DNA from: Candidatus Latescibacterota bacterium
GTDB taxonomy: Bacteria > Latescibacterota > UBA2968 > GCA-2709665
Assembly (NCBI GenBank): GCA_965116875.1
Contig: OZ220733.1
Location: 1,760,001-1,824,000, forward strand
Direction: 5' to 3'
DNA length: 64,000 bases
Shown: positions 13,680-33,055 of the stretch, piece after piece
Position numbering within the stretch: position 1 is the first letter of the stretch
Layout: each line of letters opens with the position of its first letter
Position numbers and translations under genes: made by a program
The notes under the pieces: model-generated
Told to the model about the DNA's origin: nothing
The model's database searches: none
What the model saw: only the letters and a program-made list of their open reading frames with translations

Positions 13680-14061
13680 GCGCGATTTGCAATAACCATC
13701 GGCGAAATCTGTCGGTCAGGTGTCGGTACAAGTTGCCATCGCGAGGAAGCGTCTGCGTAAGAAAGCCTGGTGCGGGCATTTCGACATTTCGACACCCTTC
13801 GACAGGCTCAGGGACCGAGCTCAATGCAGGCATGCTTGCTTCGACAAGCTCAGCACAGGCAATGACCACGCGTGGATATGCGATCTTAGACGTCGCTCAG
13901 AACGACATGCTGGCCTATAGTTAAGCACGACGCTTCCCGCTGTCATCCAGAGGAGGCGGAAGTTAAGGTGGGGCGGACATTCCTTTCTGCCCGCATGTCG
14001 ACGAATCGTCCGCGCACAAGTTTGTCTACAAAAGCCATATGCTACACGTTCGAGCGAGAAG
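13680..14061. repeat. Mosaic REP-like repeat block 1
   Basis: Modules shared with blocks 2-8 (CTTCGACAGGCTCA, GTGGGGCGGACATTCC, AGTTTGTCTACAAAAGCCATATGCTACACG). Confidence 0.85.
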
Positions 14062-14148
14062 TCACTATGTTAAAATGAGTTGAGCCTCAGCTTGTGAGAG
14101 TATACTTTGCCTTTGCCCGTAACAAACACTTTCACAAGGAGGCTCGTG

Positions 14149-15219
14149 ATGGCAAGGTATACCGTTGAAGCGTGGGATGGCAAGGATCTTTTCGTGGGCA
14201 TCGACATGCATCTCAAGCAGTGGCACGTGACGATTCTCAACGAGGATGGGTTGCGACTGTTCTCCAATCGCATCGCAGGCACAGCAGAGGCGATCGATAA
14301 GGTGTTGAGTCGTTATGGCGAAGCGAAAGAGATCTTTGCGGTGTATGAAGCCGGTTATTTCGGTTTCTGGTTATATGATTTTCTTGTCGATATGGGTGTG
14401 TCTGCTTCGGTGACGCCGCCGAGCCTGATCCCGAGCCAGAGTGGGAATCGGGTCAAGACGGATTCCATCGACAGCTTCAAGCTGGCGGATTATCTGAGGA
14501 CGGACCTGCTGGCATCGATCTATGTGCCGACGCATGAAGAGCGGTGCCACCGCCAAGTGAGTCGTCGCCGCCGGCAGTTCATCAAGGATCGGGTGCGTGT
14601 ACAACTACGGATCAAGGCCGAACTGCGGTATATGGGTTTGTATGTGCACGAAGAATCCAGAGGGACGTGGTCTGACAAGTTCGTGACCGCACTGCGTGGT
14701 GTGGACCTGGGGGAGCCGTGTGCGCAGGAAAGCTTCGAGAACATGCTGGAACAATACGATGATCTGTGTGAACTGGTGGGGCGCCAGACGAAAATGCTGT
14801 GGGAGCTTGCGCAAACAGACACGTATCGGGATCGGGTGGCGATCCTGACGTCGATCCCGGGCGTGGGATGCTTGTCTGCCATGGAGATCCTCCTGGAACT
14901 GCAGGATGTGGCGCGCTTCAAGAACGCAGATGCGCTGGCGGCCTACGTGGGGCTGACGCCCGGCCAGCACTCGTCGGGCGAGCACGTGAGGCACGGGCGC
15001 ATCACCCGCCAGGGAAAGCCCATTGTACGTGCGTTACTTACCCAGGCGGCCTGGCGCCTGATCGAGAAAGATCCCGCGATGCAGGAAAAATACGAACACT
15101 TGAAGGTGCGTGCCGGTGGCAAACGCGCCATCGTCGGTGTTGCCAGAATCCTGGTGGGCCGTATGCGCAGGATCCTGCTGAATGGAGAGCCCTATCAGCT
15201 GGGCCTCATCGCCGGGTGA
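14149..15219 (+). CDS. IS110-family recombinase/transposase (DEDD RuvC plus Tnp domain)
   Basis: VGIDMH, VYEAG and KTDSID (DEDD); SIPGVG and GLTPGQHSSG (conserved Ser); AAGGAGG RBS. Confidence 0.95.
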   Translation: MARYTVEAWDGKDLFVGIDMHLKQWHVTILNEDGLRLFSNRIAGTAEAIDKVLSRYGEAKEIFAVYEAGYFGFWLYDFLVDMGVSASVTPPSLIPSQSGNRVKTDSIDSFKLADYLRTDLLASIYVPTHEERCHRQVSRRRRQFIKDRVRVQLRIKAELRYMGLYVHEESRGTWSDKFVTALRGVDLGEPCAQESFENMLEQYDDLCELVGRQTKMLWELAQTDTYRDRVAILTSIPGVGCLSAMEILLELQDVARFKNADALAAYVGLTPGQHSSGEHVRHGRITRQGKPIVRALLTQAAWRLIEKDPAMQEKYEHLKVRAGGKRAIVGVARILVGRMRRILLNGEPYQLGLIAG

Positions 15220-15224
15220 ACACA

Positions 15225-15610
15225 CGGTCGCAACAGATGCCTGCGCACGCACCGCTTTTGATCGCGGAGTACAGGGGACGGCGCCTACCGTCTTGTAGAC
15301 CCACAGGGTACTACGTAAGTGAAGTTTGCACGCCCCGTCCCCTATCGCACGGCTCCGGATAAATGACATGTCAGCGCCTGCACCAGGCGACTACGAATAG
15401 TAGATTGGTAGCGTTGCCCCAGCATCTGAGGCCATCCAACAGAGAACACCGTACGCCTGGTCCCTACTGCTGTCGTGCGGCAGGGAACCATTCAGGCCTC
15501 AATGACGTTTATTTCGTTCATTCCGACACGCTCGACGAGCGTGTCGGAATGAACGCGTCGCATAGGTACGCATAATGGTAGAGTAACCCCAGCATCTGAG
15601 GCCAACATAT
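15225..15610 (+). ncRNA. Predicted bridge/seek RNA region of IS copy 1 (RNA ends undefined)
   Basis: Stem AGGGGACGG/CCGTCCCCT encloses an internal loop with CTACCGTCTT (9/10 match to target bottom strand) and GAAG; a second loop carries ATAGTAG matching the circle junction. Confidence 0.7.
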
Positions 15611-15641
15611 GGTCGTTTTCTCTTGACTTTTAACATAGTAG

Positions 15642-16393
15642 ACGGGAGATTCTTCGCTCCGCTCCGAATGACATGATGGCCGATAGCCGAGCACGATGCT
15701 TCGCGCTATCATCCAGAGGAGGCCGGGGTGCAACGTCTAGGAAACCCATCCGTGACACGTAAGACCAGATCGTCAAGCAGACGAGTCCCCCAGGCCGACG
15801 AAGGATCTACTGCAGCATGGGATGATGTCAAAGCGTCTGGCATTCGGTCCGCCAACAAATGCAGCACAATACCGCTTTTGCTTTGACTCCGCTCAGAATG
15901 ACAGACTTTGCAATAACCACTCGCGAAATGTATCGGTCAAGTGTCGGAACAAACGTTCATGCGGAGGAAGCCGAAAGGCAGTCGAAGCCTCCGCGCACGA
16001 GTTTGTCTACAAAAGCCATATGCTACACGTTCGAGCGAGAAGACGGGAGATTCTTCGCTCCGCTACGAATGACATGACTTGCAACAACCATTGGCGAAAT
16101 GAACCGGCCAGATCTTCGCTCCGCTCTGAATGACATGCCGGCCGATCGTCAAGCCCATTGCTTCCCCCTGCCATCCAGAGGAGGCCTGCACACAACGTCC
16201 AGGAATCACATCCGTTACTACGTGAGACCAGATTTTCGTGCAGAGGCGTCCCCAGGCCGACGAAGGATCTACTGCGGCATGGGATCATCCCCCGCGATTT
16301 GCACATGGCGACGCCTGAAAGGCAGCACGAAGACCAAGCGTCCGCGCACAAGTTTGTCTATAAAAGCCATATGCTACGCGTACGAGCGAGAAG
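15642..16393. repeat. Mosaic REP-like repeat block 2 (contains an empty IS target, core at 16041-16042)
   Basis: Several GATTCTTCGCTCCGCT..GAATGACA units and CAGGCCGACGAAGGATCT units. Confidence 0.88.
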
Positions 16394-16480
16394 TCACTAT
16401 GTTAAAATGAGTTGAGCCTCAGCTTGTGAGAGTATACTTTGCCGTTGTCCATAACAAACACTTTCACAAGGAGGCTCGTG

Positions 16481-17551
16481 ATGGCAAGGTATACCGTTGA
16501 AGCGTGGGATGGCAAGGTTCTTTTCGTGGGCATCGACATGCATCTCAAGCAGTGGCACGTGACCATTCTCAACGAGGATGGGTTGCGACTGTTCTCCAAT
16601 CGCATCGCAGGCACAGCAGAGGCGATCGATAAGGTGTTGAGTCGTTATGGCGAAGCGAAAGAGATCTTTGCGGTGTATGAAGCCGGTTATTTCGGTTTCT
16701 GGTTATACGATTTTCTTGTTGAAATGGGTGTGTCTGCTTCGGTGACGCCGCCGAGCCTGATCCCGAGCCAGAGTGGGAATCGGGTCAAGACGGATCCCAT
16801 CGACAGCTTCAAGCTGGCGGATTATCTGAGGACAGGCCTTCTGACATCGATCTATGTGCCGACGCATGAAGAGCGGTGCCACCGCCAGGTGAGTCGTCGC
16901 CGCCGGCAGTTCATCAAGGATCGGGTGCGTGTACAACTACGGATCAAGGCCGAACTGCGGTATATGGGTGTGTATGTGCCCGAAGAATCCAGAGGGACGT
17001 GGTCTGACAAGTTCGTGACCGCACTTGGCGGTGTGGACCTCGGGGAGCCGTGTGCGCAGGAAAGCTTTGAGAACATGCTGGAACAATACGATGATCTGTG
17101 TGAACTGGTGGGGCGCCAGACGAAAATGCTGTGGGAGCTTGCCCAAACAGACACGTATCGGGACCGGGTGGCGATCCTGACGTCGATCCCGGGCGTGGGA
17201 TGCCTGTCTGCCATGGAGATCCTCCTTGAGCTGCAGGATGTGGCACGCTTTGAGAGCGCAGATGCGCTGGCGGCCTACGCGGGGCTGACGCCAGGCCAGC
17301 ATTCGTCGGGTGAGCACGTGAGGCACGGGCGCATCACCCGCCAGGGGAAACCGATGGTGCGTGCGTTACTCATCCAGGCGGCCTGGCGCCTGATCGAGAA
17401 AGACCCCGCGATGCAGGAAAAATACGAACGCATGAAGGTGCCTGCCGGTGGCAAACGCGCCATCGTCGGTGTTGCCAGAAACCTGCTGGGCCGAATGCGC
17501 AGGATCTTGCTGAATGGAGAGCCCTATCAGCTGGGCCTCATCGCCGGGTGA
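16481..17551 (+). CDS. IS110-family recombinase/transposase
   Basis: Near-identical to copy 1; DEDD and GLTPGQHSSG motifs intact. Confidence 0.95.
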   Translation: MARYTVEAWDGKVLFVGIDMHLKQWHVTILNEDGLRLFSNRIAGTAEAIDKVLSRYGEAKEIFAVYEAGYFGFWLYDFLVEMGVSASVTPPSLIPSQSGNRVKTDPIDSFKLADYLRTGLLTSIYVPTHEERCHRQVSRRRRQFIKDRVRVQLRIKAELRYMGVYVPEESRGTWSDKFVTALGGVDLGEPCAQESFENMLEQYDDLCELVGRQTKMLWELAQTDTYRDRVAILTSIPGVGCLSAMEILLELQDVARFESADALAAYAGLTPGQHSSGEHVRHGRITRQGKPMVRALLIQAAWRLIEKDPAMQEKYERMKVPAGGKRAIVGVARNLLGRMRRILLNGEPYQLGLIAG

Positions 17552-17556
17552 ACACA

Positions 17557-17940
17557 CGGTCACATCAGATGGCTGCGCACGCACTGCTTTTAATCGCGGA
17601 GTACGGGGACGGCGCCTCCCGTCTTGTAGACCCTCAGGGTACTACGTAAGTTGAGTTTGCACGCCCCGGCCCCTATCGCACGGCTCCGGATAAATGACAT
17701 GTCAGCGCCTGCACCAGGCGACTACGAATAGTAGATTGGTAGCGTTGCCCCAGCATCTGAAGCCATCCAGAAGGGAATACCGTACGCCTGGTCCCTACTG
17801 CTGTCGTACGGTAGGGAACCATTCAGGACTCAATGACGTTTATTTCGTTCATTCCGACACGCTCGACGAGCGTGTCGGAATGAACGCGTGGCATAGGTAC
17901 GCACAATGGTAGAGTAACCCAAACATCTGAGGCCAAGATA
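17557..17940 (+). ncRNA. Predicted bridge/seek RNA region of IS copy 2
   Basis: CTCCCGTCTT (17616-17625) is the exact reverse complement of target AAGACGGGAG; ATAGTAG (17728-17734) matches the donor junction. Confidence 0.72.
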
Positions 17941-17972
17941 TTATCCTTTTCTCTTGACTTTTAACATAGTAG

Positions 17973-18405: not shown

Positions 18406-18409
18406 TCAC

Positions 18410-20755
18410 TCATACCGCAGCGCGTCCACCGGATTCGCGGGCTGCCCGGATAGTCTGGATGACTACGGTCAGTTGCACCGCAAGCAGCAACAATACACCC
18501 CCCAATAAAAAGGTGGGAATGTCCGGTCCAATCCGGTACGCGAAATCCTCTAACCATCGTTCCGTTGCGTAATACGCCGCGGGGAACGCGAAGAGACTCG
18601 CAATGACCACAAGCTTTACGAAGTCCCTGGATACCAGGACGACAATCCCGGATCCACGAGCGCCCAGGACCTTTCGGATCCCGATCTCCTTGGTCCGCCT
18701 GGACACGGCAAGAGCCGTGAGCCCAAACGCTCCGAGGCAGGCGATTATGACCGCAATCAGCGCACCATACCCGATAATTCGGTTCCATCGCTCTTCTTTT
18801 CTGTACTGCCCGTCCACTTCATCGTCGAGAAACGAAAACCGAAACGCACGGCCTGGCGCAACCTCGCGCCACTTCTCCTCGAGGTACGCCAGCGTACCAG
18901 GGATATCATCACCGCGGATCCTGACGAGCATTTGGTAGGATGCGAACGGGCTCAGGGTCAACACCGCTGGTCCGATCGTGTGGTGCAGGGAGCGCACATG
19001 GAAGTCCCTTACGACTCCGATAACCGCAACATCCCGCTTGTTCATGCGCAGCATTCTGCCAACGATTGGCATGTCCCAGCCCAGGTGTTTGACCAGGGCC
19101 TCGTTCACGATAATGGACGCGTGTGAAGCAGGTTTCAGCGAATCGAAGTCCGAACCTTCCAGAAGTGAGATATCCATCGTCTTAAGAAAGTCGTAGCCGA
19201 CGTTTACTTGCTCGACGTCCATTTTCTCGCCCTCGTGCTCAATAATCCCCTTGTACCTCGTCCTGTTGCTTAGCGCGTGGAGGGTGGTTGTAATCGCCAG
19301 CACATTGGGGTTCTGCATCAACTCGTTTTTGTACACCTCGTCTAGACGCGAGTCCGCCTGGAGCGGGTCCGATGTCGTAATGCGCAAGAGGTGTTCACTG
19401 TCGAAGCCCAGAGGTTTCGTCTTCAGGAAATCAAGTTGCCGAACCATCGCGAGCGCACTGATAACCATAAAGACGGAAAGCGCGAATTGCACCACGACCA
19501 GCGCCCGCCCGAAACGGTTCGGCCCTCCCAGCCTGATGCGGCCTTTCAAGGCCGAAGCCGGCTGAACACCTGACAGCACGAAGGCCGGGTAGACGCCTGC
19601 GGCCAGTCCAACGGCCGCAGCCAATCCAAGCAGAACGGCCGTGCCCGAACCGTCCGCCTGATCGAACAGAGCGATGTCTTTCGCCACAATGTCTTTGAAA
19701 GCCGGCAGGAGGAATTCCGCCAGGCCCGTCCCGGCTAACAGTGCCAGAACGCTTAATAGCATCGATTCTCCTAGAAACTGCATCACCAGTTGAATTCGAG
19801 ACGCACCAGTCACCTTTCGCATCACCACTTCCCGGTCGCGTGAGAATGACCTGCCCACGGCAAGGGTAACGTAGTTCACACAGGCGATCGTCAGGACGAG
19901 AAGGACGATACCGAGAAGAATATAAGAGAATGCCGGATTTCCTGCTCCCATTGGACCCCGGCTACCCCGGTTGAGATGCATTTCCAGTAGTGGCAGGAGG
20001 CCAATCGAGCGGTCCAACTGTTCTACCATCCATGGCGGGAGCGATTTTCGGAGCAATTGCGAAAACCGTTCGTTGAGTTCCGATGTACGTTCTTTTTTCG
20101 AGACCATTACGTACGTTTCGACATCACTAATATTCCAACCCCTCGTGTAGCCTCTGCTGGCAAAAGGCGCGAGGAAATCGAACCTGATGCTTGAGTTCTT
20201 GGGGGCGGACTTGGCAATGCCGGTAACAACGAAATCCCGCACGGCCACCGGAGGACCCGATAGATTCACGGAAAGGACTTTGCCCAGGGGATCTTCGTCG
20301 CCAAAATATCTACGCGCCGTGGACTCAGCGATCACTACGTTGTATGGATCGTCCAGCACAGTAGCCGGGTCGCCTTTCAGCAGGGGAAAGGTGAACACCT
20401 CAAGGATCGCCGGATCGGCGAAGTAGAAACTTCCCCTGAGTGACCGGTCCCCATCTTTTACAGATGAAGCGCCCCTGCCAATCCTGACGGACCGGACGTC
20501 CGAGAATGCCTCTTCAAGCGCCGGTCCCAATGGATCGGGAGTCTCACCTCCCGGTCCCATCCGGGATTCGACATAGACCCTGAATATTCGATCGGCGTTT
20601 TCGTGAAACGCGTCGTAGGTCCACTCTTGACGGACATACAGGAACGCCAGCACGCAGAACGCTATCGCGATGCCCAGACCCACCACGTTAATCGCGGCAT
20701 AGAGCGGATGCCGCAACAGATTGCGCCAGGCCACCTTGAGATAATTCCAGAACAT
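18410..20755 (-). CDS. ABC transporter permease, MacB/FtsX-type (paralog 3; last ~8 residues frameshifted)
   Basis: 781 aa, most similar to paralog 1; ends IRAARESGGRAAV instead of ...ANPVDALRYE. Confidence 0.9.
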   Translation of the reverse strand: MFWNYLKVAWRNLLRHPLYAAINVVGLGIAIAFCVLAFLYVRQEWTYDAFHENADRIFRVYVESRMGPGGETPDPLGPALEEAFSDVRSVRIGRGASSVKDGDRSLRGSFYFADPAILEVFTFPLLKGDPATVLDDPYNVVIAESTARRYFGDEDPLGKVLSVNLSGPPVAVRDFVVTGIAKSAPKNSSIRFDFLAPFASRGYTRGWNISDVETYVMVSKKERTSELNERFSQLLRKSLPPWMVEQLDRSIGLLPLLEMHLNRGSRGPMGAGNPAFSYILLGIVLLVLTIACVNYVTLAVGRSFSRDREVVMRKVTGASRIQLVMQFLGESMLLSVLALLAGTGLAEFLLPAFKDIVAKDIALFDQADGSGTAVLLGLAAAVGLAAGVYPAFVLSGVQPASALKGRIRLGGPNRFGRALVVVQFALSVFMVISALAMVRQLDFLKTKPLGFDSEHLLRITTSDPLQADSRLDEVYKNELMQNPNVLAITTTLHALSNRTRYKGIIEHEGEKMDVEQVNVGYDFLKTMDISLLEGSDFDSLKPASHASIIVNEALVKHLGWDMPIVGRMLRMNKRDVAVIGVVRDFHVRSLHHTIGPAVLTLSPFASYQMLVRIRGDDIPGTLAYLEEKWREVAPGRAFRFSFLDDEVDGQYRKEERWNRIIGYGALIAVIIACLGAFGLTALAVSRRTKEIGIRKVLGARGSGIVVLVSRDFVKLVVIASLFAFPAAYYATERWLEDFAYRIGPDIPTFLLGGVLLLLAVQLTVVIQTIRAARESGGRAAV

Positions 20756-20885: not shown

Positions 20886-21113
20886 CACGGGAGATTCTTC
20901 GCTACGCTACGAATGACCTGACTTGCAATAACCATTGTCGAAGTGAACCGGCCAGATCTTCGCTCCGCTCTGAATGACATGCTGGCCCATAGTCAAGCGC
21001 GTTGCTTCCCACTGTCATCCAGAGGACTTGCCCTGCTTGTGCTGAGCCTGTCGAAGCGAGCCTGTCGAAGGGGCCTGGGTGAGGGTGGGGCGAACATTCC
21101 TGTCTGCCAGCCT
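20886..21113. repeat. Mosaic REP-like repeat block 4
   Basis: ACGGGAGATTCTTCGCT...GAGCCTGTCGAAG...GTGGGGCGAACATTCCTGTCTGCC. Confidence 0.88.
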
Positions 21114-23501
21114 CTACTCATACCGCAGCGCGTCCACTGGATTCGCCCCCGCTGCTTTCCACGTCTTGTAGCCCACTGTAAGAAGCGCAATGCTCAACGA
21201 CAGCAATCCCCCCAGAACAAACGTCGGGATCGCCGGATCGACCCGGTACGCGAAGTTCTCCAGCCACCTGTTCATTGCATAATAGGCAATCGGCCAGGCG
21301 ACGAGATTGGCAATCCCGACAAGTGCAACATATTCCCTGGACAAGAGCAAGACAACGTTGGTAACGGATGCTCCCACCGCTTTCCGGATACCGATTTCCT
21401 TAGTCCTTTGTTGCACGCTGATAGACGCCAGGCCGAACAGACCGAGACCTGCCACGACGATCGCCAGAACCGAGAAACCGCCGAACAGCATCCCCAGTCG
21501 AACTTCCGCCCGGTATAGCCGGTCAAAAGACGTGTCCAGGAACGAATATTCGAACGGGGAATTCGGTACGACTTCATGCCATTGGGATCTGAGAAAGTCC
21601 AGCGTGCCTGGAACATCGTCCGGGCGTATCCGGATGGAAATGTAGTCTCTTGTCCACCCCCCGCCCATCATGATCACAAGCGGTTCAATCTCATGATGGA
21701 GAGACTTGTAATGAAAGTCCCTGACAACCCCCACCACGTCTCCCTGGAGTCCCGCTTTCATCATTTCAGCACCTTCTCCATATACGTCCATTCCAATCTG
21801 TCTATTCGCACATGAAGTCCATCCTAAATTCCTCATCGCTGCTTGATTCAGCATAAATGCGCCCTTGCGATCGCTTGCAACCTCATCAGACAATGCCCTT
21901 CCCTCCAATACTTCAATACCGAACGTCTCGATAAACCCGTGATCCACGTACATCACATTCATCAGCACACCATCTTTGAATGCACCATCCGTGAGGGGAA
22001 AAAACACATTGCCGGGCATCACCCCGCCTGGCACAGTCGAAGAGGCTGTTACATTCAGTACGGCGCTGTGTGCCAATACCATATTTCGGTAGCGCCGCTC
22101 CGGCTCGCCGCCGCGGTTCGGCATGACAACGATATGTTCCTTTCGAAATCCAAGACGCCTGTTTCGAACATAATCTGCCTGGTCATAGATCAGACCGGTC
22201 CCAATGACCAGAATGACGGATATTGCGAACTGAACAATAATGAGCGTCTTTCGCAAACCGCATCGCTTCGAACCGGCGTCCATCACCCCTCTAAATACCA
22301 GGACGGGTTTAAGCGACGAGAGAAAAAACGCGGGATAGCTCCCGGAGAACAAGCCAGTAAACAGCGCAATGCCGATCAAAGCCAGCAAAACGTCCCGGCT
22401 TTTCAGGAAATCAACGACCAGGTCGCGTTCGACAAAGGCATCAAATGACGGAAGCAGAATCTCCACCATCACACCGGCGATAACAATGGCAATTGAAGTC
22501 AGCAACGTCGATTCGCCCAAGAACTGAGCGATCAACTCGCCCCGGTTTGCTCCGACCACTTTCCGCAGCCCGATCTCCTTTGCGCGGTACTCCGAGCGGG
22601 CGGTCGAAAGGTTCATAAAATTGATGCACGCGAGCAGCAAGACGAGAAAGGCGATGGCGAGAAAGAGAAAGACATAGCGGATGTCCCCGTTGGGACTGAT
22701 TTCAAAATCCAGGTTTGAGTGAAGATGAATATCGGTCACAGGCTGCAGAAAGAGTTTCAAACGTATACCCGCGGCTTCCATTTGTGCTCCGAGGTGTCTC
22801 TCCGTAAAATCCGGCAACTTGGTTTCAACCTCGTCGGCGGCCTGCGTGGCCTGCAGGAGCAGATAGGTATAGAAGTCTATACTTAGCCAGCCCTTGCTGA
22901 TGTCAAGCGATGCCAGAAAGTCGAACTGTAAATGCGATCTGTGTTTTGAGTTCCTCAACACTCCCGTAATCTTATACGTATTGCCGCCCAACGAAAGCGT
23001 CTGCCCCATCGGATCCTCGTCTCCGAAATATTTAAGAGCCATCGCATCCGTCAAGACAATGGAATTGGGTTCCTGGAGTGCGGTTTGAGGATCACCTTTG
23101 CTCAGGGGAAAATCGAAGACCTGGAAGACGTTTGCATCCACGAACAGGACGCCTCTTTCGTAAAAACGACGCTGCTGATTTGCAACCAGCGTCTTTTCAT
23201 CCTTCCGGTGAAACCTAACCGCGTCTTCTACTGACGGGAATTCCTGAACGAGAGTTGAAGCCATCGGGAATGATGTAAGGGCGAACCGACCGGGCACCCC
23301 TTCCGATTGTATCTCTGCGGCGAGTCGGAAAATCCGATCCGCGTTCTCATGGTGCCGGTCATAGCTCAATTCATCCTGAACGTACAGAAGAATAAGGATG
23401 CAGCAGGCCATGCCGATTGCAAGACCAAGGATGTTGATCACCGAGAATACCTTGTTCCTCAACAGATTGCGAATGGCGACTTTCAGGTAGTTTGAGATCA
23501 T
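21114..23501 (-). CDS. ABC transporter permease, MacB/FtsX-type (paralog 4)
   Basis: 795 aa; LACINFMNLSTARS, KEIGIRKAVGA and ANPVDALRYE. Confidence 0.93.
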   Translation of the reverse strand: MISNYLKVAIRNLLRNKVFSVINILGLAIGMACCILILLYVQDELSYDRHHENADRIFRLAAEIQSEGVPGRFALTSFPMASTLVQEFPSVEDAVRFHRKDEKTLVANQQRRFYERGVLFVDANVFQVFDFPLSKGDPQTALQEPNSIVLTDAMALKYFGDEDPMGQTLSLGGNTYKITGVLRNSKHRSHLQFDFLASLDISKGWLSIDFYTYLLLQATQAADEVETKLPDFTERHLGAQMEAAGIRLKLFLQPVTDIHLHSNLDFEISPNGDIRYVFLFLAIAFLVLLLACINFMNLSTARSEYRAKEIGLRKVVGANRGELIAQFLGESTLLTSIAIVIAGVMVEILLPSFDAFVERDLVVDFLKSRDVLLALIGIALFTGLFSGSYPAFFLSSLKPVLVFRGVMDAGSKRCGLRKTLIIVQFAISVILVIGTGLIYDQADYVRNRRLGFRKEHIVVMPNRGGEPERRYRNMVLAHSAVLNVTASSTVPGGVMPGNVFFPLTDGAFKDGVLMNVMYVDHGFIETFGIEVLEGRALSDEVASDRKGAFMLNQAAMRNLGWTSCANRQIGMDVYGEGAEMMKAGLQGDVVGVVRDFHYKSLHHEIEPLVIMMGGGWTRDYISIRIRPDDVPGTLDFLRSQWHEVVPNSPFEYSFLDTSFDRLYRAEVRLGMLFGGFSVLAIVVAGLGLFGLASISVQQRTKEIGIRKAVGASVTNVVLLLSREYVALVGIANLVAWPIAYYAMNRWLENFAYRVDPAIPTFVLGGLLSLSIALLTVGYKTWKAAGANPVDALRYE

Positions 23502-23519
23502 GGCATCTGTCTGCCTTGC

Positions 23520-24447
23520 GTCAACCTGGCGCGGCTTCGCTATGGTCAGCTGTGACTGAATCCGAAAGGCCGACGAAGCCTCTGCGCAGGTAAGCCAAAT
23601 GCGGGCATTTCGACAAGCTCAATGACCACGCGTCGATATGCAATCTTCGGCGTCGCTCAGAATGACACGCTCGCCGATCGTCAAGCACGATGCTTCCCGC
23701 TGTCCTCCAGAGGAGCCCCCTGGGCCGACGAAGGATCTACTGCGGCATGGGATGATGCCAATGCGTCTGGCATTCTGCCCGCCAACAAATGCAGCACAAA
23801 AACCGCTCTTGTTTCGACTTCGCTCAGAATGACATGCTTTGCAAAAACCATTGGCGAAACCTGTCGGCCAGGTGTCGACACAAACTGTCGACCTGAGGAA
23901 GCCGGTGTGAGGGTGGGGCGGACATTCCTGTCTGCCTGCATGCGGCGGAAGCGTCCGCGCAAAAGTTCGTCTACAGAGGCCATATGCTCCACGTCCTGTC
24001 GAGACGGGAGATTCTTCGCTCCGCTCTGAATGACATGCTGGCCCATAGCCGAGCACGATACTTCCCGCTGTCATCCAGAGGACTTGCCCTGCTTGTGCTG
24101 AGCCTGTCGAAGCAAGCCTGTCGAAGGGGCCTGGGTGCAACGTCCAGGAATCACCTCTGTTTCACATGAGACCAGATTGTCATCCTAAGGAAGCCGGAAG
24201 GCAGTCGAAGCGTCCGCGCACAAGTTTGTCTATAAAATCCATATGCTACACGTTCGAGCGAGAAGACGGGAGATTCTTCGCTGCGCTTTGAATGACTTGA
24301 CTCGCAACAACCATTGGCGAAATGTATCGGTCAGATCTTCGCTCCGCTCTGAATGACATGCCGGCCGATAGTCAACCAAGATGCTTCCCGCTGTCGTCCT
24401 GAGGAAACCGGTGTGAGGGTGGGGCGGACATTCCTGTCTGCCCGCTC
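23520..24447. repeat. Mosaic REP-like repeat block 5 (longest; empty IS target core at 24264-24265)
   Basis: Contains nearly all modules seen in the other blocks. Confidence 0.88.
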
Positions 24448-26826
24448 TCACTCATACCGCAACGCGTCGACTGGATTGGTGCACGCAGCTCTCCAAGCCC
24501 GGTGACTCACGGTGGTCAACGCAATAAACAACGCCAGAAAACCACCCATGACAAAAGGCCAAACATCCAGATCTATGCGATATGCGAAATTCTGTAACCA
24601 CGCGTTCATTGCATAATATGCAATTGGCCACGCAATGAGATTCGCAAGTCCGATAAGCAGGACGAATTCTCTGGACAATAGCAGAACGACTGTGGAAACA
24701 GACGCTCCAAGGACCTTTCTGACGCCGATCTCCTTGATACGCTGTTGCGCGCTGAATGAAGCCAGACCAAACAGCCCAAGACTGGCAATAAGAATGGCGA
24801 GGAGAGAGAACAGTCCAAACAATTCGCCAATCTGTTGTTCTGCGCGATGCAGTTTGTCGTAATCGTCGTCCAAAAAGAAATAGTCGAACGGTGTATTCGG
24901 CGCAATTTCACCCCACTCTGCCTCCAGAATCCTGAGTGTACCTGCGATGTCATCAGAACGAATCCTGATAACGAAATACTCAAACCAAGTTTCCAGCGTT
25001 GTGATTATCAGAGGTTCGATTTCATGATGCAAAGACTGATAGTGAAAGTCCTTAACAACGCCGACAACCTTTCCTCTGTATTCTACCTCAATTTCGTTGC
25101 CCTGTGGCCATATTTTCTCCAATTCCTTACCAATGCACGAAGTCCAACCGAATTTTCGCCTGGCAGCTTGATTGAGGATAAGTTCGCCACGATTGTAACG
25201 CGAAATGTCTTTTGAGAATTCTCTGCCTTCTGTGAGTTCAAGTCCAAGTGTGGAGACGAATTCGTTGTCAGCCACGACCTTGTTAATCCCAAATCCATCC
25301 TCAGATGTGCCATCACCGGGAGACCGAAACAGACCGGTGGGAATTGGCCGACCAGGCAAACTTGAAGTCGTCGCAGTGCTCAATACATTTGTATACTCTG
25401 ACAATTTCGATTTGTATCGCTTTGTCGCTTGTATTCCGGGGTAAGGCAATACAACGACCTGTTCTTTATTGAAACCCAGTTTTTTGTTTCTGATGTAATC
25501 CGACTGATTGTAAACGACAATCGTCCCGACAATGAGAATTACCGAAATGGCAAATTGAAACACGACGAGGGATTTGCGTGAACCGGACTTCTGCAACCCT
25601 GTCTCCAGTGTGCCTTTTACGACCCTTGCTGGCTGAAATGCCGAGAGAATCAAGGCTGGATAAATCCCGGAAAGCGAACCTGCAAACAACGTTACCCCAA
25701 TCAAGACCAACAACACATGCAAAGTTCCCGCATAATCCAAATCCAATTTGCGGGATATAAGGGCGTTAAACGCAGGAAGTGAGACCTCAACAAGAACAAC
25801 CGCCAAAAATGAGGCAAACACCGCCAGCAGGATCGATTCACCCATAAACTGACGAAAAAGCTGTGAGCCGTTGGCGCCCACGACCTTTCGCATACTCACT
25901 TCTTTTGAGCGAGCCGTTGAGCGAGCCGTCGAGAGATTCGTAAAATTGACACAGGCCAATAGCAGCACAAAAAAGGCAATGATCAGGAAGAGATAGACAT
26001 AGCGAATATCGCTGTTGGAGCTCATTTCCCACTCCAGGCTGGAATTCAGATGAATATCAGCCAGTGGTTGCAGGAAGTAGCTGATTTGTAAACCTGCAGC
26101 TTTGGTCTGTCTCCCAATGTGCCTCTCGGTAAAATCAGGTAACTTCGTTTCTAACTCGTCAGCAGCACGGGTGTCTTGCAAGAGCAGATAGGTGTAATAA
26201 TCGTGGGCAATCCATTCCTTGCTCTTGATGGGCGATGCCAGAAAATCGAACGTTAAATGGGTATTGTGGGCGTGGTCCTCCAGAATACCAGTTATCTTGT
26301 ACGCTTCATCCTCCATTGCAAGCGTCTGCCCCATTGGATCCCGGTCGCCGAAATATTTCCACGCCATCTCTTGTGTGAGAACAATGGAATTGGGTTCCAG
26401 CAGTGCCGTTTGAGGATCCCCTTTGCCCAGTGGAAAATCAAAGACGTGGAAGACATTTGCATCGGTAAACAAGACATTACTTTCGTAGAAATGAACCTGC
26501 TGGTTTCCAACAAGCGTCTTTTCATTGGCTTTCAAAAAACGGACTGCATCTAACACTTCGGCATAGTCTTCGACAAGTGCAGGTCCCGTTGAAAATGGCG
26601 ACATGGCAACCTGACGCACGACCCCTGCGACCTTTGCGGTTGTAGCAAGCCGATAAATGCGGTTGGCGTTTTCATGGTGCCGGTCATAGCTCAGTTCATC
26701 CTGAACGTAGAGGAGAATGAGCATGCAGCAGGCCATGCCGATTGCAAGACCGAGGATATTGATGGCCGAAAATGTCTTGTTCCTCATTATGTTGCGAATG
26801 GCGACTTTCAGGTAATTCGCAATCAC
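24448..26826 (-). CDS. ABC transporter permease, MacB/FtsX-type (paralog 5)
   Basis: 792 aa; GTG start after AGGAGG RBS; TNPVDALRYE tail. Confidence 0.93.
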   Translation of the reverse strand: MIANYLKVAIRNIMRNKTFSAINILGLAIGMACCMLILLYVQDELSYDRHHENANRIYRLATTAKVAGVVRQVAMSPFSTGPALVEDYAEVLDAVRFLKANEKTLVGNQQVHFYESNVLFTDANVFHVFDFPLGKGDPQTALLEPNSIVLTQEMAWKYFGDRDPMGQTLAMEDEAYKITGILEDHAHNTHLTFDFLASPIKSKEWIAHDYYTYLLLQDTRAADELETKLPDFTERHIGRQTKAAGLQISYFLQPLADIHLNSSLEWEMSSNSDIRYVYLFLIIAFFVLLLACVNFTNLSTARSTARSKEVSMRKVVGANGSQLFRQFMGESILLAVFASFLAVVLVEVSLPAFNALISRKLDLDYAGTLHVLLVLIGVTLFAGSLSGIYPALILSAFQPARVVKGTLETGLQKSGSRKSLVVFQFAISVILIVGTIVVYNQSDYIRNKKLGFNKEQVVVLPYPGIQATKRYKSKLSEYTNVLSTATTSSLPGRPIPTGLFRSPGDGTSEDGFGINKVVADNEFVSTLGLELTEGREFSKDISRYNRGELILNQAARRKFGWTSCIGKELEKIWPQGNEIEVEYRGKVVGVVKDFHYQSLHHEIEPLIITTLETWFEYFVIRIRSDDIAGTLRILEAEWGEIAPNTPFDYFFLDDDYDKLHRAEQQIGELFGLFSLLAILIASLGLFGLASFSAQQRIKEIGVRKVLGASVSTVVLLLSREFVLLIGLANLIAWPIAYYAMNAWLQNFAYRIDLDVWPFVMGGFLALFIALTTVSHRAWRAACTNPVDALRYE

Positions 26827-26839
26827 GTTGTGCTACCTC

Positions 26840-27403
26840 CTGCGGCTTCGTTATGCCCGGCTGCGACCGTAGCCGTCAAGCCAACGACGCGTCCGCGCAC
26901 GAGTTTGTCTATAAAGGCCATATGCTACACGTACGAGCGAGAAGACGGGAGATTCTTCGCTCCGCTACGAATGACATGACTTGCAATAACCATTGGCGAA
27001 ATGAACCGGCCAGATCTTCGCTCCGCTCTGAATGACACGCCGGCCGATAGCCGAGCACGATGCTTCCCGCTGTCGTCCTGAGGAAACCGGTCTGAGGGTA
27101 GGGCGGACATTCCTGTCTGCCTGCATCGCAGTCCGTCTGCGCTCTGGCTGTCATCCCGAGGAAGCCGAAAGGCAGGCGTTGGGTCCGCGCAGGGAAGCTT
27201 AGTGCGGGCATTTCGACAAGCTCAATGACCACGCGTCGACATGCGATTTTGACTCCGCTCTGAATGACATGCTGGCCGATAGCCGAGCACGATACTTCCC
27301 TCTGTCCTCCAGAGGACTTGCCCTGCTTGTGCTGAGCTTGTCGAAGCAAGCCTGTCGAAGGGGCCTGGGTGAGGGTGGGGCGGACATTCCTGTCTGCCCA
27401 CTC
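26840..27403. repeat. Mosaic REP-like repeat block 6 (empty IS target core at 26943-26944)
   Basis: Same modules and orientation as the other blocks. Confidence 0.88.
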
Positions 27404-29794
27404 TCACTCATAACGCAGCGCGTCGACTGGATTCGCCCCCGCTGCTTTCCACGTCTTGTAGCCCACTGTAAGAAGCGCGATGCTCAGCGACAGCAATCCT
27501 CCAAGAAAAAATGTTGGGAACGCCGGATCGACCCGGTACGCGAAGTTCTCCAGCCACCTGTTCATTGCATAATAGGCAATCGGCCAGGCGACGAGATTGG
27601 CAATCCCGACAAGTACAACATATTCCCTGGACAAGAGCAAGACAACGTTGGTAACGGATGCCCCCACCGCTTTCCGGATACCAATTTCCTTGGTCCTTTG
27701 TTGCACGCTGATAGACGCCAGGCCGAACAGACCGAGACCCGCCACGACAATCGCCAGGATGGAAAACACGCCGAGAAGCGTCCCAAGTCGAGCTTCCGTA
27801 CGGTAAAGCTGATCGAAAGACGTGTCCAGGAACGAGTATTCAAACGGCGAATTCGGCGCTACTTCCCGCCACTGCGTTTTCAGGAAATCCAACGTGCCAG
27901 AAATGTCCTCCGGACGTATCCGGATCGACAGGTAGTTTACCCATCCCCTGTCTACCAGCATGATCACGAGCGGTTCGATTTCGTGATGCAGTGATTTGTA
28001 GTGAAAGTCCTTCACAACGCCCACGACGTCTCCCTGGACGTTCACTTTTAATTGACCGCCTTCCGGATAGACATGCGCCAGTTTTTTGTTTTCACAGGAC
28101 GTCCACCCCAATTTCCGCATGGCGGCGTCATTGAGCATGAATGTCCCGATTCGGTCGCTTCTGAATTCCTTCGAAAAGGCACGACCCTCCAATACTTCGA
28201 TTCCAAATGTCGAGATGAACCCGTGACCCGCGAATACCACGTTGAATACCGACGCATCGCTGCTGCGGCCCTCGATGACGGGGCGAAAGAAGTGACTTGC
28301 GATCATCCGACCAGGCACGGTCGACGAAGCAGAGGCGTCCAATACCGAACTGTATGGCGTCACCGCGTTCTTATATCGCTTCATGGCATCTGGATCACCG
28401 TAGGGCATTACGAGCACGTGCTCCTTTTGGAATCCCAATCGCATGTTGCGTACGAAACTCGCCTGGTCATAGACCACTGCCGTCCCAATCACAAGTACGA
28501 TTGAAATGGCAAACTGAACGACGACAAGCGTCCTTTGCAGACTCAGTTTGTTGGAACCGGCACGCGCCAAACCTTTCAATGCGGCAACCGGCTGAAAGGA
28601 GGAGAGAAACAGGGCGGGATAGCTACCGGACAGAACTCCTGTAAGCAGCACAATGCCAATGAAGCCCACCAGGAGTCCACTGCCTCGCAGATACTCAAGA
28701 TTCAGGCTACGTTCAGTAAAGGCACTAAACGTGGGTAGGGCAGTTTCGACGAACACGACGGCGACAACTGTGGAAATCGCAGCTGTAATGGTCGAATCGC
28801 CCAGAAACTGAAAAATCATCTGTCGTCGTTTTGCCCCGACCACTTTCCGCAGTCCCACCTCCCTAGACCGGTACGTGCAATGGGCGGTCGAAAGGATCGT
28901 ATAATTGATGCACCCCAGCAGCAACACAAAAAACGCGATTGCGACGAACAGGTAGATATATCTGATGTCCCCGTTTGCACTGACTTCATATTCCAGACTG
29001 GAATGCAAATGAATATCGGTCAACGTCTGCAGGAAGGGTTTCATCTGCACCCGCCTGGCTTTGTCTCTTTCGCGAAGATACCGCTCGACAAAATCGGGCA
29101 ATGCCCGCTCCAATTCGGACGCGGCATTTTTGTCTCTCAAGAGCAGATAGGTATAATAGCTGTGAGCAATCCAGCCGTCGTCGTCACTTTCTATGGGCGT
29201 TGCCAGAAAATCGAACTGTAAATGAGTGTTGTACGTGGGTTCTTCCAGGATGCCGGTTACCTTATACAATTTCCGGTCCACCGAGAGAGGCCGCCCGATC
29301 GGGTCGTCGCCGTCGAAGTACTTCCTGGCCATTGCTTCCGACAGCACGATGGAATACGGTTCCCGAAGCGCCGTCTGGGGATCTCCGTTGCTCAGTGGAA
29401 AATCGAAGACCCGAAGGATGTTCGAATCCGTGAACATTACGCCCGGCTCGTAAAAATGGTCGTCTCTGGTTTCAACCAGTGTTTTCTCGCCGATATCCCT
29501 GAAGAACCGCACGGCATCGACAACCATTGGATAGTCCTGCACGAGAGCCGGCCCCATCTGGAACGGCGTAACCGCAATACGATGCGTCTTCCCACTCACG
29601 CTGACCTCATCGGCAAGGCGAAATATCCGATCTGCGTTCTCGTGATGCCGGTCATAGCTCAGTTCATCCTGAACGTAGAGGAGAATGAGCATGCAACAGG
29701 CCATGCCGATTGCAAGACCGAGGATATTGATGGTGGAAAACAGCTTGTTTCTCAACAGGTTGCGAATGGCGACTTTCAGATAGTTCGCGATCAC
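27404..29794 (-). CDS. ABC transporter permease, MacB/FtsX-type (paralog 6)
   Basis: 796 aa; GTG start after AGGAGG RBS; ANPVDALRYE tail. Confidence 0.93.
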   Translation of the reverse strand: MIANYLKVAIRNLLRNKLFSTINILGLAIGMACCMLILLYVQDELSYDRHHENADRIFRLADEVSVSGKTHRIAVTPFQMGPALVQDYPMVVDAVRFFRDIGEKTLVETRDDHFYEPGVMFTDSNILRVFDFPLSNGDPQTALREPYSIVLSEAMARKYFDGDDPIGRPLSVDRKLYKVTGILEEPTYNTHLQFDFLATPIESDDDGWIAHSYYTYLLLRDKNAASELERALPDFVERYLRERDKARRVQMKPFLQTLTDIHLHSSLEYEVSANGDIRYIYLFVAIAFFVLLLGCINYTILSTAHCTYRSREVGLRKVVGAKRRQMIFQFLGDSTITAAISTVVAVVFVETALPTFSAFTERSLNLEYLRGSGLLVGFIGIVLLTGVLSGSYPALFLSSFQPVAALKGLARAGSNKLSLQRTLVVVQFAISIVLVIGTAVVYDQASFVRNMRLGFQKEHVLVMPYGDPDAMKRYKNAVTPYSSVLDASASSTVPGRMIASHFFRPVIEGRSSDASVFNVVFAGHGFISTFGIEVLEGRAFSKEFRSDRIGTFMLNDAAMRKLGWTSCENKKLAHVYPEGGQLKVNVQGDVVGVVKDFHYKSLHHEIEPLVIMLVDRGWVNYLSIRIRPEDISGTLDFLKTQWREVAPNSPFEYSFLDTSFDQLYRTEARLGTLLGVFSILAIVVAGLGLFGLASISVQQRTKEIGIRKAVGASVTNVVLLLSREYVVLVGIANLVAWPIAYYAMNRWLENFAYRVDPAFPTFFLGGLLSLSIALLTVGYKTWKAAGANPVDALRYE

Positions 29795-29819
29795 GTTGGT
29801 ACCTCCTGTGTCGTCACCG

Positions 29820-30290
29820 GTTCGGCTTCGCTATGCCCGGCTGCGACCGAAGCTGTCAACCCATCGAAGCGTGCGCGCAGGGAAGCTTAGTGCGGGCATT
29901 TCGACAAGCTCAATGACCACGCGTCGACATGCGATTTTGACTCCGCTCTGAATGACACGCCGGCCGATAGCCGAGCACGATGCTTCCCGCTGTCGTCCTG
30001 AGGACTTGCCCTGCTTGTGCTGCTTGCACTGAGCCTGTCGAAGTGGCTCGTCGAAGCAAGCCTGTCGAAGGGGCCTGGATGAGGGTGGGGCGGACATTCC
30101 TGTCTGCCTGCATGTCGACGAAGCGTCCGCGCACGAGTTTGTCTACAAGAGCCATATGCTACACGTACGAGCCAGAAGACGGGAGATTCTTCGCTCCGCT
30201 ACGAATGACACGACTTGCAATAACCATTGGCGAAATGTATCGGTCAGATCTTCGCTCCGCTCTGAATGACATGACGTTCGATCGCCATCG
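29820..30290. repeat. Mosaic REP-like repeat block 7 (empty IS target core at 30177-30178)
   Basis: Same modules in a different order. Confidence 0.88.
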
Positions 30291-30367
30291 TTGATATGTA
30301 TCTGTCTCTCGTCGGCTTAGACTAAAATGGTGTGGGAGCCAAAGGGCTGACGAGGGGTCGCCCGCTC

Positions 30368-32833
30368 TTACTCATACCGCAGCGCGTCCACGGGATTCGC
30401 GCGGGCTGCCCGGGTGACCTGAAGGCTCACCGCCAGGAGCACCATGAGAAGCATGAGCCCGCCTCCCAGCAGAAACGTCCCGAGCCCCGGTTCCACGCGA
30501 TACGCAAAGTCTCGCAGCCAGCGCTCGGCCACGAAGTAGGTCGCTGGCCATGCGATCAGAGCGGCGATGCCGACGAGGACCACGTATTCCCTGGTCAGCA
30601 GAGACACGATCCGCGACGTCGGCGCGCCAAGGGTCTTCCGGATCCCGATTTCCTTGGTCCGCCTGGCCACAGTGAGCGACGTCAATCCGAAGGCGCCCAG
30701 GCAGGCGATGAATACCGCGAAAAGAGTCGCGTAACCCGCGATTCTGAACCACCGCTGTTCCTCACGGTATTGACGATCTATTTCCTCATCCAGGAAGTTA
30801 TGGTCAAACGGAACATTCGGTACGACTTCATCCCACTTCTCTCTCAGGAAATCCAGCGTGTCAAAGACGTTCTCCGGACGAATCCGAACCATCAGCAGGA
30901 CCCGGAAGTCCGGCATGGACCTGGCGGATGACGAGGACGCCTGCAATTTCAGCACCGCGGGCCCAATGGTGTGGTGAAGGGACCGGAAATGAAAATCACG
31001 GACGACGCCGATTACCGTTAATTCCTGCCCATCGATTCGAATCGTCTCACCGAGCGGTGATTCCCATCCGAGTCTCTTGGCGAGGGTTTCGTTGACAAGG
31101 ACCGACGTCTTCGCATCGTTTTCCCGTTCGAGATTCCTCCCGTCAGTTAGCCTGATGTTCATTGTTTCGAGAAGTCGCGAATCGCAGAAAATCCTTTCAA
31201 CACCTGCCAAAGTCGTCCCCTTCCAGCTTATGTGAGTATTGTTCCTCATAGAATTGCTAAGACCGTGTGATGTTCTCGTGGATTTCAATACGGAATGGTG
31301 TGGCCGGATTGCTTCCTCGAAGACATTAGCCAATTCCAATCTATCTGATATCCCTAATAGTCGAATGACGACAACATGGCTGGATTCGAAACCAAGCGGC
31401 ATTGATTTCCACGCGCTCATTTGTATTGATGCTATGGTCATGGCTGTCACCAGTGCTGTGGAGATGGCCAGTTGAAATACAAGGAGCGCGCGGCTGAAGG
31501 TCCCCACGCGATCCACCTTGAACCGACCTCTCAACGCATCGACCGGGAAAAAGCCCGACATGAACAACGCAGGGTAACCCCCGGCGAATACTCCCACGAC
31601 CAGCGCCATGACGAACAGAAACACGAGTGACTCAGAATTTCCAAGATCGGACAACGCGAATTTCCTGCTGACCAGGCTGTTGAAACCCGGCATGAACAGT
31701 TCGGCCAGTGCCACCCCGAGCGCGAACGCGATCAACGTCAGCAGGACCGATTCCGCGAGAAACTGCCTCACCAGTTGCGTACGCAGGCCCCCGGCCACCT
31801 TACGCATTCCGACTTCCCGGACACGGGAAAACGACCGGCCGACAGACAGATTCGTATAATTGACTCCCGCCACGACCAGCACGAGTAATGCAATGCCTCC
31901 CAGAAGATGTGAATGGACAGGATTGCCATCGGGGCGCGGTCCCATGCGCCTGCCATCAAAATAAATCTCTCCAAGCGGCTGCAACATCAGCTTACTCAGG
32001 TATCGGCTCCTGGTTTCTGATACCTGAAGATCTTCAATGCGGCGTTCGACTTCCAGTGGGCTCAGATAATCAGGGAGCATAATGTAAGTGCTCACTGCAC
32101 TGACGTTCAAGCCGCGTTCTTGATTGTCCGGTTTTAATGAGGAAAGAAAGTCAAAGCGAATGGTGGAGTTCCTGGGAATGTCCCTGATCACACCGGTTAT
32201 CGTCATTTCCTGAGTCGGTCGAGCGTCTGCGAATTCGTCCTTGGATTCAGGGGGTTTGCTTTGTCGACCTATCGAAATCACGTTCAAGCCGGATGCTCCC
32301 ACGGTGAATACTGCCGCCTCGATGTCTTGAACCGAGATTGTCTTTCCAATCGGGTCCTCACCCGGGAAATACTTATCGGCCATTGTTTCAGTTATGACGA
32401 CATAGTCTGGATCCGACAATGCGGTGGCAGGGTCTCCCTTGATCAGAGGAAAGGAGAAGACGTCCAGAATCTCTGGGTCTGCAAAAAGGAAATCTGCCTT
32501 GGTCGTCTCACCAGCGCGCCCAATCACGCGTCCACCGGGATCCAATCTCACGCATTGGACATCCGGCTGAGCTTCTGACAACTTTGGTGCTAACGTGATC
32601 TCCGTCCTTTCAGACAAGTAAACCGCATCATTAACCTTTAGCTCCCTTACAATCCGGTAAATCCGATCCGCGTTTTCGTGAAACCCGTCGTACGTCCACT
32701 CGTATCGCACAAACAGGAACGCCAGCAGGCAAAATGAAATCGCGATGCCGAGGCCGACGACGTTGATCGCGGCATAGAGCGGATGCCGCAGCAGGTTTCG
32801 CCAGGCCACCTTGAGATAATTCCAGAACATCAA
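30368..32833 (-). CDS. ABC transporter permease, MacB/FtsX-type (paralog 7)
   Basis: 821 aa with a ~30-aa insert in the first periplasmic domain; ANPVDALRYE tail. Confidence 0.93.
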   Translation of the reverse strand: MMFWNYLKVAWRNLLRHPLYAAINVVGLGIAISFCLLAFLFVRYEWTYDGFHENADRIYRIVRELKVNDAVYLSERTEITLAPKLSEAQPDVQCVRLDPGGRVIGRAGETTKADFLFADPEILDVFSFPLIKGDPATALSDPDYVVITETMADKYFPGEDPIGKTISVQDIEAAVFTVGASGLNVISIGRQSKPPESKDEFADARPTQEMTITGVIRDIPRNSTIRFDFLSSLKPDNQERGLNVSAVSTYIMLPDYLSPLEVERRIEDLQVSETRSRYLSKLMLQPLGEIYFDGRRMGPRPDGNPVHSHLLGGIALLVLVVAGVNYTNLSVGRSFSRVREVGMRKVAGGLRTQLVRQFLAESVLLTLIAFALGVALAELFMPGFNSLVSRKFALSDLGNSESLVFLFVMALVVGVFAGGYPALFMSGFFPVDALRGRFKVDRVGTFSRALLVFQLAISTALVTAMTIASIQMSAWKSMPLGFESSHVVVIRLLGISDRLELANVFEEAIRPHHSVLKSTRTSHGLSNSMRNNTHISWKGTTLAGVERIFCDSRLLETMNIRLTDGRNLERENDAKTSVLVNETLAKRLGWESPLGETIRIDGQELTVIGVVRDFHFRSLHHTIGPAVLKLQASSSSARSMPDFRVLLMVRIRPENVFDTLDFLREKWDEVVPNVPFDHNFLDEEIDRQYREEQRWFRIAGYATLFAVFIACLGAFGLTSLTVARRTKEIGIRKTLGAPTSRIVSLLTREYVVLVGIAALIAWPATYFVAERWLRDFAYRVEPGLGTFLLGGGLMLLMVLLAVSLQVTRAARANPVDALRYE

Positions 32834-32864
32834 TAGACTCCTCTTGGATTGGATTCATCGATGA

Positions 32865-33055
32865 AATGTCCGCGCATATGGGTTTACCGCGCGTTGACCT
32901 CATGGACAGTCGAGAAGACGGGAGATTCTTCGCTCCACTACGAATGACATGGCTTGCAATAACCATTGGCGAAATGAACCGGCCAGATCTTCGCTCCGCT
33001 CTGAATGACATGCTGGCCGATTGCCGAACACGATGCTTCCCGCTGTCACCCTGGT
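32865..33055. repeat. Mosaic REP-like repeat block 8 (empty IS target core at 32916-32917), inside the predicted 5' leader
   Basis: CGAGAAGACGGGAGATTCTTCGCTCC...AGATCTTCGCTCCGCTCTGAATGACA. Confidence 0.85.

Follow-up and report, generated by a model that had tools for sequence, protein, structure and literature searches.

A probable RNA-guided IS1111-group insertion sequence at AG-cored sites in a Candidatus Latescibacterota genome

We analysed a stretch of 64,000 nucleotides (nt) from the genome of a Candidatus Latescibacterota bacterium, hereafter the window (positions 1760001-1824000 of contig C1 of genome G000, which is a single 5.45-Mb contig), in which two copies of one insertion sequence (IS) lie close to several unoccupied copies of the site that they interrupt. 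The element is very probably RNA-guided, with a DEDD recombinase, and belongs to the IS1111 group within the IS110 family; a bridge/seekRNA is predicted to be encoded 3' of its transposase gene. As far as can be read from the letters, it is not the whole 27-nt repeat but a string of about 11-14 nt within it (approximately GA-AG-ACGG[G/T]AG) that would be the target, recognised by an RNA of the element itself whose guide lies in the 3' non-coding region; if only such a string is read, any repeat that carries it would be a target, which applies to both repeat families described below as type A and type B. This new addition to a known group leaves the knowledge of the mechanism unchanged. Its interest is that of a natural example of RNA-guided site choice in which guide, donor match and sites can be read from one genome, with empty and filled sites side by side and two guide variants co-resident. 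For annotation, the point is that the target would be the short string read by the RNA and not the surrounding repeat, and candidate programmable recombinases gain a scaffold, so far uncharacterised, that has an AG core and a right guide of 7+2 nt.

Element copies, empty sites and shared flanks

The first copy, c1, has a body of 1578 bp (14062..15639, plus strand), and the second, c2, occupies 16394..17970 on the same strand. A BLAST search of the genome with c1 returned six full-length copies, all with open frames: c1 (100%, being the query itself), c2 (95.2% identical), c3 at genome position 3382704 (99.87%), c4 at 3391300 (99.75%), c5 at 3415449 (99.49%) and c6 at 5315224 (88.9%). The boundaries of c1 and c2 are alike, reading ...GAGCGAGA-AG on the left, an element running from TCACTATGTTAAAA to TTTTAACATAGT, and AG followed by ACGGGAGATTCTTCGCT on the right, and the earlier note was therefore correct in stating that both elements interrupt the same motif at the same AG and in the same orientation. 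In c1 the left and right cores are located at 14060..14061 and 15640..15641 (plus strand). The dinucleotide is single in empty sites and stands on both sides of all six genomic copies, with nothing else duplicated.

Uninterrupted versions of the motif were located with the 27-mer GAGCGAGAAGACGGGAGATTCTTCGCT, which has five matches in the window at up to three mismatches, all on the plus strand, with starts at 16033, 24256, 26935, 30169 and 32908; not one of 100 shuffles gave any match. Three of these sites are exact (16033..16059 with AG at 16041, 24256..24282 with AG at 24264, and 26935..26961 with AG at 26943), the site at 30169..30195 (AG at 30177) has one mismatch, and that at 32908..32934 (AG at 32916) has three, all in the distal left part. 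These are the same five cores as in the earlier note. The half-site and the inverted match of the earlier note were also recovered: at 23998..24026 (plus strand; AG 24002-24003, gtcg-AG-ACGGGAGATTCTTCGCT) the right half is intact and the left half is different, and on the minus strand GAAGACGGGAGAT lies at 10855..10867 within a heptamer-array (type B) repeat, with GAAGACGGGAGA(T) at 10855/6-10867. A further right-half site, absent from the earlier list, is found at 20887 and has no AG core. Since all the sites are intergenic, the suggestion that the type-A repeat serves as a safe landing pad between genes is plausible.

The flanks of the six copies fall into two types. Type A, the repeat first noticed in the window, holds c1, c2 and c6, the left flank of c6 being GAGCCAGA. 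Type B holds c3, c4 and c5, which have ...[GT]AGAGGGA-AG on the left and ACGGTAGAAGAA.. or ACGGTAGAGG... on the right and sit within arrays of a heptamer, (GA[CG]GG[GT]A)n. The only sequence common to the two contexts is approximately ..G.GA-AG-ACGG[G/T]AGA (∼12-14 nt). The earlier note had held that the target is defined to the base and that copies in unrelated flanks would speak against this. The insertion point is indeed exact and the orientation fixed; however, three of the six copies lie in a different repeat family that shares only those ∼12-14 nt, which in part speaks against the note as worded and indicates that the 27-nt repeat is not the determinant.

Sites of either type are numerous in the genome. 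The 27-mer has four exact copies and 20 with up to four mismatches, five of the 20 being in the window. With one mismatch at most, the string ACGGGAGATTCTTCGC identifies 34 members of an intergenic repeat family that is dispersed in the genome and has units of about 200 nt or longer; three members are filled and 31 empty. In 16 of the empty ones AG precedes ACGGG, and GAAG is present in 11, including the window's five; the 15 without the AG core mostly read GAAT. The five empty sites are clustered in the window because the spacers of a tandem array of permease genes were duplicated. The motif GAAGACGG[GT]AGA occurs 60 times in the genome, for the most part within heptamer arrays (G in 46 cases, T in 14), and the shorter AGACGG[GT]AGA occurs 343 times.

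IS1111 features and the predicted guide RNA

The transposase gene of c1 (14149..15219, plus strand) encodes 356 amino acids of DEDD/IS110 type, as indicated by Pfam, NCBIfam and its motif; that of c2 lies at 16481-17551 on the same strand. Pfam recognised PF01548 (DEDD_Tnp_IS110, the N-terminal DEDD/RuvC-like domain; 3.5e-19) and PF02371 (C-terminal; 5.2e-27), and the NCBIfam model NF033542, 'IS110 family RNA-guided transposase', scored 216.4 bits against a cut-off of 140. In a phmmer comparison with the IS621 transposase 8wt6, only the C-terminal domain aligned (E 1.5e-11). Insertion at a fixed dinucleotide core with no conventional target-site duplication agrees with the IS110 family. The features that define the IS1111 group, namely subterminal inverted repeats, a downstream non-coding region and a sequence motif, are set out in PMC11187229 and PMC11208160, and all three are found here. 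The 12-nt left repeat ACTATGTTAAAA (14064..14075, plus strand) is the reverse complement of the right repeat TTTTAACATAGT (15628..15639, plus strand), a length within the range of 7-17 bp given for the group (PMC11208160); the non-coding DNA measures 420 nt downstream of the gene against 87 nt upstream; and GLTPGQHSSG (in ...YVGLTPGQHSSGEH...) fits the motif GL-P----S(t)G of the C-terminal domain of IS1111-type transposases (PMC11187229).

Downstream of the gene we predicted a target-binding module (15264..15358, plus strand) closed by helix P1 (15264-15270 with 15352-15358) and containing helices P2 (15272-15283 with 15327-15337) and P3 (15294-15297 with 15312-15315). In an alignment of this region (A1; seven sequences from six lineages), RNAalifold places P1 at columns 20-26 with 112-118, P2 at 28-39 with 87-97 and P3 at 50-53 with 72-75, and leaves unpaired columns 40-49 and 76-86, which are the two guide segments and thus the two strands of an internal loop. 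Standard pairs make up 86.2% of the alignment cells in these helices, as against 33-46% when partners are slid by one to three columns, and compensatory changes are found in 11 of 21 pairs, as against 0-5 when slid; none of 500 shuffles reached the observed pairing or covariation score.

The two strands of the loop correspond to the two strands of the site. The 5' strand reads CUACCGU-CU (7 nt plus CU) and is complementary to the top strand of AG+ACGGTAG; it belongs to the right-target guide CCTACCGTCT (15284..15293, plus strand), in which 15285-15293 is the reverse complement of AG+ACGGTAG. The 3' strand carries a segment ..GA-AG identical to the left flank and core, within the left-target guide AAGTGA-AG (15317..15324, plus strand, same sense as left flank plus core). 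In c2 the corresponding guides are CCTCCCGTCT (17615-17624) and AAGTTGAG (17648-17655), both on the plus strand. From the sequence and the covariation, the top-strand-complementary segment thus lies 5' of the bottom-strand-complementary one and the two overlap at the insertion point, which is the order reported for IS1111 seekRNAs (PMC11187229). A donor guide ATAGT-AG (15397..15403, plus strand) is identical to the last five bases of the right end plus core, and a candidate second donor guide, AAATGACAT (15361..15369, plus strand), is tentatively proposed, its TGAC being complementary to G+TCA of the core and left end.

Relatives of the element were taken from G022, a genome of the same class that has two copies with a 58% identical protein, and from four more distant genomes, L023-L026 (47-53%). 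All have the same end motifs and AG core and quite different flanks, and the module layout is common to five related lineages, each with a different target. In 10 of the 12 copies examined (c2-c6, both G022 copies, L024, L026 and L023), which cover five different target sequences, an exact reverse complement of the core and the first 7 nt to its right is present just once, on the coding strand and at the homologous place (1186-1225 of the body); the exceptions are c1, with one mismatch, and L025, with no match. On the left, the 3' loop strand ends in AG and repeats the flank before the core, over 5 nt in L023, L025 and one G022 copy (L032), over 2 nt in L024 and over 2 nt or more in L026, whose contig stops there. 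In the young lineage of G000 at type-B sites it gives GA plus AG, a mismatch, and then two more bases. The fifth, variable base of the donor guide ATAG[T/C/G]AG is the last base of the right end in all six lineages.

Based on IS621 and the IS1111 seekRNAs, the element would be excised as a circle joining the right end, AG and the left end, and the transposase would be loaded with the non-coding RNA, whose two loop strands would pair with the two strands of a chromosomal site while a second loop (ATAGT-AG) would pair with the element's own ends. Strand exchange would occur at the AG core, which would leave AG on both sides and nothing else duplicated. Read by eye, the circle junction would also form a promoter, with TTGACT (15623-15628), a 17-nt spacer across AG, and TATGTT (14066-14071); a promoter scan of the integrated copy found no sigma-70-like sites.

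Guide variants and competing explanations

In the six-copy alignment the right guide exists in two forms that differ at position 15287: CCTACCGTCT, with A, in c1, c3, c4 and c5, and CCTCCCGTCT, with C, in c2 and c6. The sites of c3, c4 and c5 read AG-ACGGTAG and those of c2 and c6 read AG-ACGGGAG, so that the guide base is complementary to the site base (A-T, C-G) in five of the six copies, the exception being c1. The C is probably ancestral, because c2 and c6 are the divergent copies, and the A-variant marks a young sub-lineage of 99.5-99.9% identical copies found mainly at ACGGTAG sites. The 14-mer composed from the two guides of the young lineage, AGTGA-AG-ACGGTAG, has no exact match and five one-mismatch matches in 5.45 Mb; four of these five are AGGGAAGACGGTAG, the same motif as at the three occupied type-B sites.

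Several observations weigh against an RNA that reads its sites in this way. With its A-type guide, c1 is at an ACGGGAG site, a fit with 3/14 mismatches; c2, with the left guide AAGTTGAG, is at a site with 4/14 mismatches to its own guides; and the site of c6 has 3/14. The left-target guide in general fits poorly in this genome, its contiguous match being GA plus the AG core only. The association of guide and site in five of six copies is too small for statistics, and c1 and c2 are neighbours. Beyond this genome, the guide position of L025 holds nothing complementary to its right flank, and the candidate second donor guide at 15361-15369 fits the left end by eye in about four of six lineages. 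A search of 13000-34000 against Rfam 15 found nothing at E<=1, and the single-sequence fold of the non-coding region was no better than shuffles (z -0.80). The sole contig from an RNA library spans 14058-14585 only, which does not include the non-coding region, and may be DNA; and no joint of right end to left end, as expected of a circle, was listed in the assembled contigs of four public runs, contigs being prone to drop rare forms.

In L025 (1385-1420), the right-guide position TCAATATGTGT is not complementary to the right flank AG-ATATGTA and the left guide fits over 5 nt plus core, so the copy is either misplaced or has a drifted guide. The copy c5 (3415449-3417027) is a mosaic, being c1-like except for c2-type bases at six positions in alignment columns 445-537 (c2-like patch 483-537); copies therefore recombine, which suggests gene conversion between them. 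The RNA-library contig, from metatranscriptomic run X20, is 531 nt long; it starts no more than three letters from the left boundary of the element and extends over the 5' portion of the transposase gene. It does not show transcription, and carry-over of DNA is possible.

How the two guide forms relate to the two site types can be explained in more than one way. We tentatively consider that the change from C to A at 15287 split the IS into two co-resident sub-lineages, preferring ACGGGAG and ACGGTAG respectively, and that the badly fitting c1 and c2 were placed in trans by the guide of a sister copy. If so, copies within one genome share a pool of guides and the location of an element need not reflect its own RNA. 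The one-base variant would then be a neat natural case of retargeting, drawn from only six events. Conceivably, though this too is on the doubtful side, the substitution retargeted nothing, position 5 of the right flank being tolerant and the split between type A and type B reflecting history, such as local hopping and gene conversion. The A-guide of c1 at a G site, the recombinant patch in c5 (columns 483-537), the small number of events, and the right flanks in G009, a draft genome of the same genus (AG-ACGGAAG in three of four, AG-ACGGTAG in one), favour this explanation; opposed to it are the complementarity of guide and site base in five of six copies, the complementarity of all seven right-flank positions in five other lineages, and the location of the three type-B sites in the genome's best-scoring class of sites for that guide pair. 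The misfits of c1, c2 and c6 may reflect positional tolerance, gene conversion or trans guidance by a sister RNA.

A classical mode, in which it is the transposase protein that picks out the 27-nt repeat or its hairpin, as a site-specific recombinase or an IS targeting repetitive extragenic palindromic (REP) sequences would, and the RNA complementarity is incidental, is very improbable. The three type-A insertions do share at least 27 nt of flank, and the bases around the site could form a weak, imperfect hairpin; however, half of the copies lie in flanks that have only ∼12-14 nt in common with the repeat, and the relatives, with transposases of 47-58% identity, insert at quite different targets, the sequence of each target being reflected in the homologous loop of the RNA. 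Folding the DNA of two type-A sites gave -7.4 and -5.3 kcal/mol, which is no better than shuffles (z -0.85 and +0.10), and a REP-like stable palindromic target was accordingly rejected. Hardly credible is a single insertion followed by local segmental duplication, or an assembly artefact, as the source of c1 and c2: they are only 2.3 kb apart in a region rich in local repeats, but they differ at about 5% of positions, their right flanks are alike for about 25 nt and then diverge, and they carry different guide variants, both found again in contigs from independent runs; the genome is a single contig, and c1 is far closer to a copy 1.6 Mb away, at 99.87%, than to c2, so that the independent insertions proposed in the earlier note hold.

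Comparable systems, occurrence and surroundings

The core of the element is AG in the sense of the transposase, unlike in IS621, the core of which is CT. The predicted RNA resembles the IS621 bridge RNA (Durrant et al. 2024, PMC11208160; structures 8wt6-8wt9): the two-loop logic with target and donor guides that include the core dinucleotide, the internal loop between two helices with one guide per strand, and insertion at a 2-nt core without duplication are common to both. The element differs from IS621 in having the RNA at the 3' and not the 5' end, a reversed guide order and long (12 bp) inverted repeats. It is also like the IS1111 elements with seekRNAs, ISEc11, ISPa11, ISKpn4 and ISPst6 (Siddiquee et al. 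2024, PMC11187229), with which it shares a DEDD transposase with the group motif, subterminal inverted repeats, a long downstream non-coding region, and the same guide order with matches overlapping in the target. The predicted P1-closed module is 95 nt long, within the 82-96 nt of the seekRNAs, and the transposase of 356 amino acids compares with 330-350 for the family. The present element differs from them in target and host and in its 420-nt non-coding region, which holds an additional segment duplicated internally and a palindrome of 41 nt.

The near-perfect palindrome (15515..15555, plus strand) lies within this additional segment, which is about 170-190 nt long and not shared by relatives. 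At 15406-15606 a direct repeat of ∼30 nt (..GGTAG[CA]G...CCCCAGCATCTGAGGCCA) brackets ∼170 nt absent from relatives, including the palindrome, and this bracketed segment recalls the extra downstream module described for ISPpu9. ISPpu9 and ISPpu10 of Pseudomonas putida KT2440 (PMC12288879) are likewise IS110-family elements with several copies inside a dispersed intergenic repeat family and with extra RNA-coding material downstream of the transposase gene, and ISPpu10 has a hybrid promoter at the circle junction, of which the promoter read by eye here would be the counterpart. In contrast to their targets, which are REP palindromes, the type-A site is no convincing palindrome and type B is a heptamer array.

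DNA of the element was found in three of 22 genomes of the family, counting G000, and close protein relatives (E<=1e-40) in three of 132 genomes of the class; a related-locus search of genome contigs returned eight loci, all relatives of only 35-53% identity. In G009, element ends lie at eight contig ends, all in heptamer arrays, with the interior unassembled; the left flanks are ..GACGTG-AG (three) and ..GCGGTG-AG (one). G014, of the same genus, has two truncated fragments in heptamer arrays (L002:1501-1654 and L005:1501-1590), one being the first 153 nt and the other a piece across the gene end and the start of the non-coding region; these remnants show that the element predates the species and is subject to decay. 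Heptamer arrays are the other target of the element in G000, G009 and G014, and probably the commoner one. A scan of metagenome contigs with the right-guide scaffold GGGACGGCG-N8-CTTGTAGACC gave 13 loci and no extra copies, all 13 being rejected as unrelated GC-rich DNA without element ends.

At least part of the stretch is present in 20 public runs from 14 studies, and the contigs of four runs mentioned above were compared. Both guide variants (A and C at 15287) are present in contigs of X2 and X4, which are from different studies, the C being linked to the c2-type left guide. Flanks absent from G000 were seen on one X4 contig and at two loose ends in X2. Joints that skip 1580 bp (14059 to 15640) occur on three contigs of X2 and one of X3, with sides of 21-30 nt; they were rejected as an occupied/empty polymorphism of the c1 locus, as other empty repeat members explain them, and no unambiguous empty allele of this locus was found in the contigs of the four runs.

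The window also encodes seven paralogous permeases of 781-821 amino acids with MacB_PCD and FtsX domains, all on the minus strand (1719-4067, 6999-9365, 18410-20755, 21114-23501, 24448-26826, 27404-29794 and 30368-32833). Two of them, compared with the ADOP model TIGR03434, scored ∼290 bits, well below its cut-off of 622. Five of the seven genes are arranged in tandem, and the type-A sites lie in the repeated spacers of 600-950 nt between them. An abundant repeat places heptamer arrays (GA[CG]GG[GT]A)n beside a GAAGAA.CCCTTGCC...CTTGCCTCCGGCAGG core throughout the genome, as at 10840-10870 of the window (minus strand) and at L004:1440-1500. The 58% identical relative in G022 (L035:1390-2811 and L032) is inserted at GAAGGGG(A)CTC-AG-GATGACATATTT, within a GCTCAGGATGACA-type motif, and a similar motif, GCTC[AT]GAATGACA, is found in G000 ∼20 nt to the right of the type-A site.

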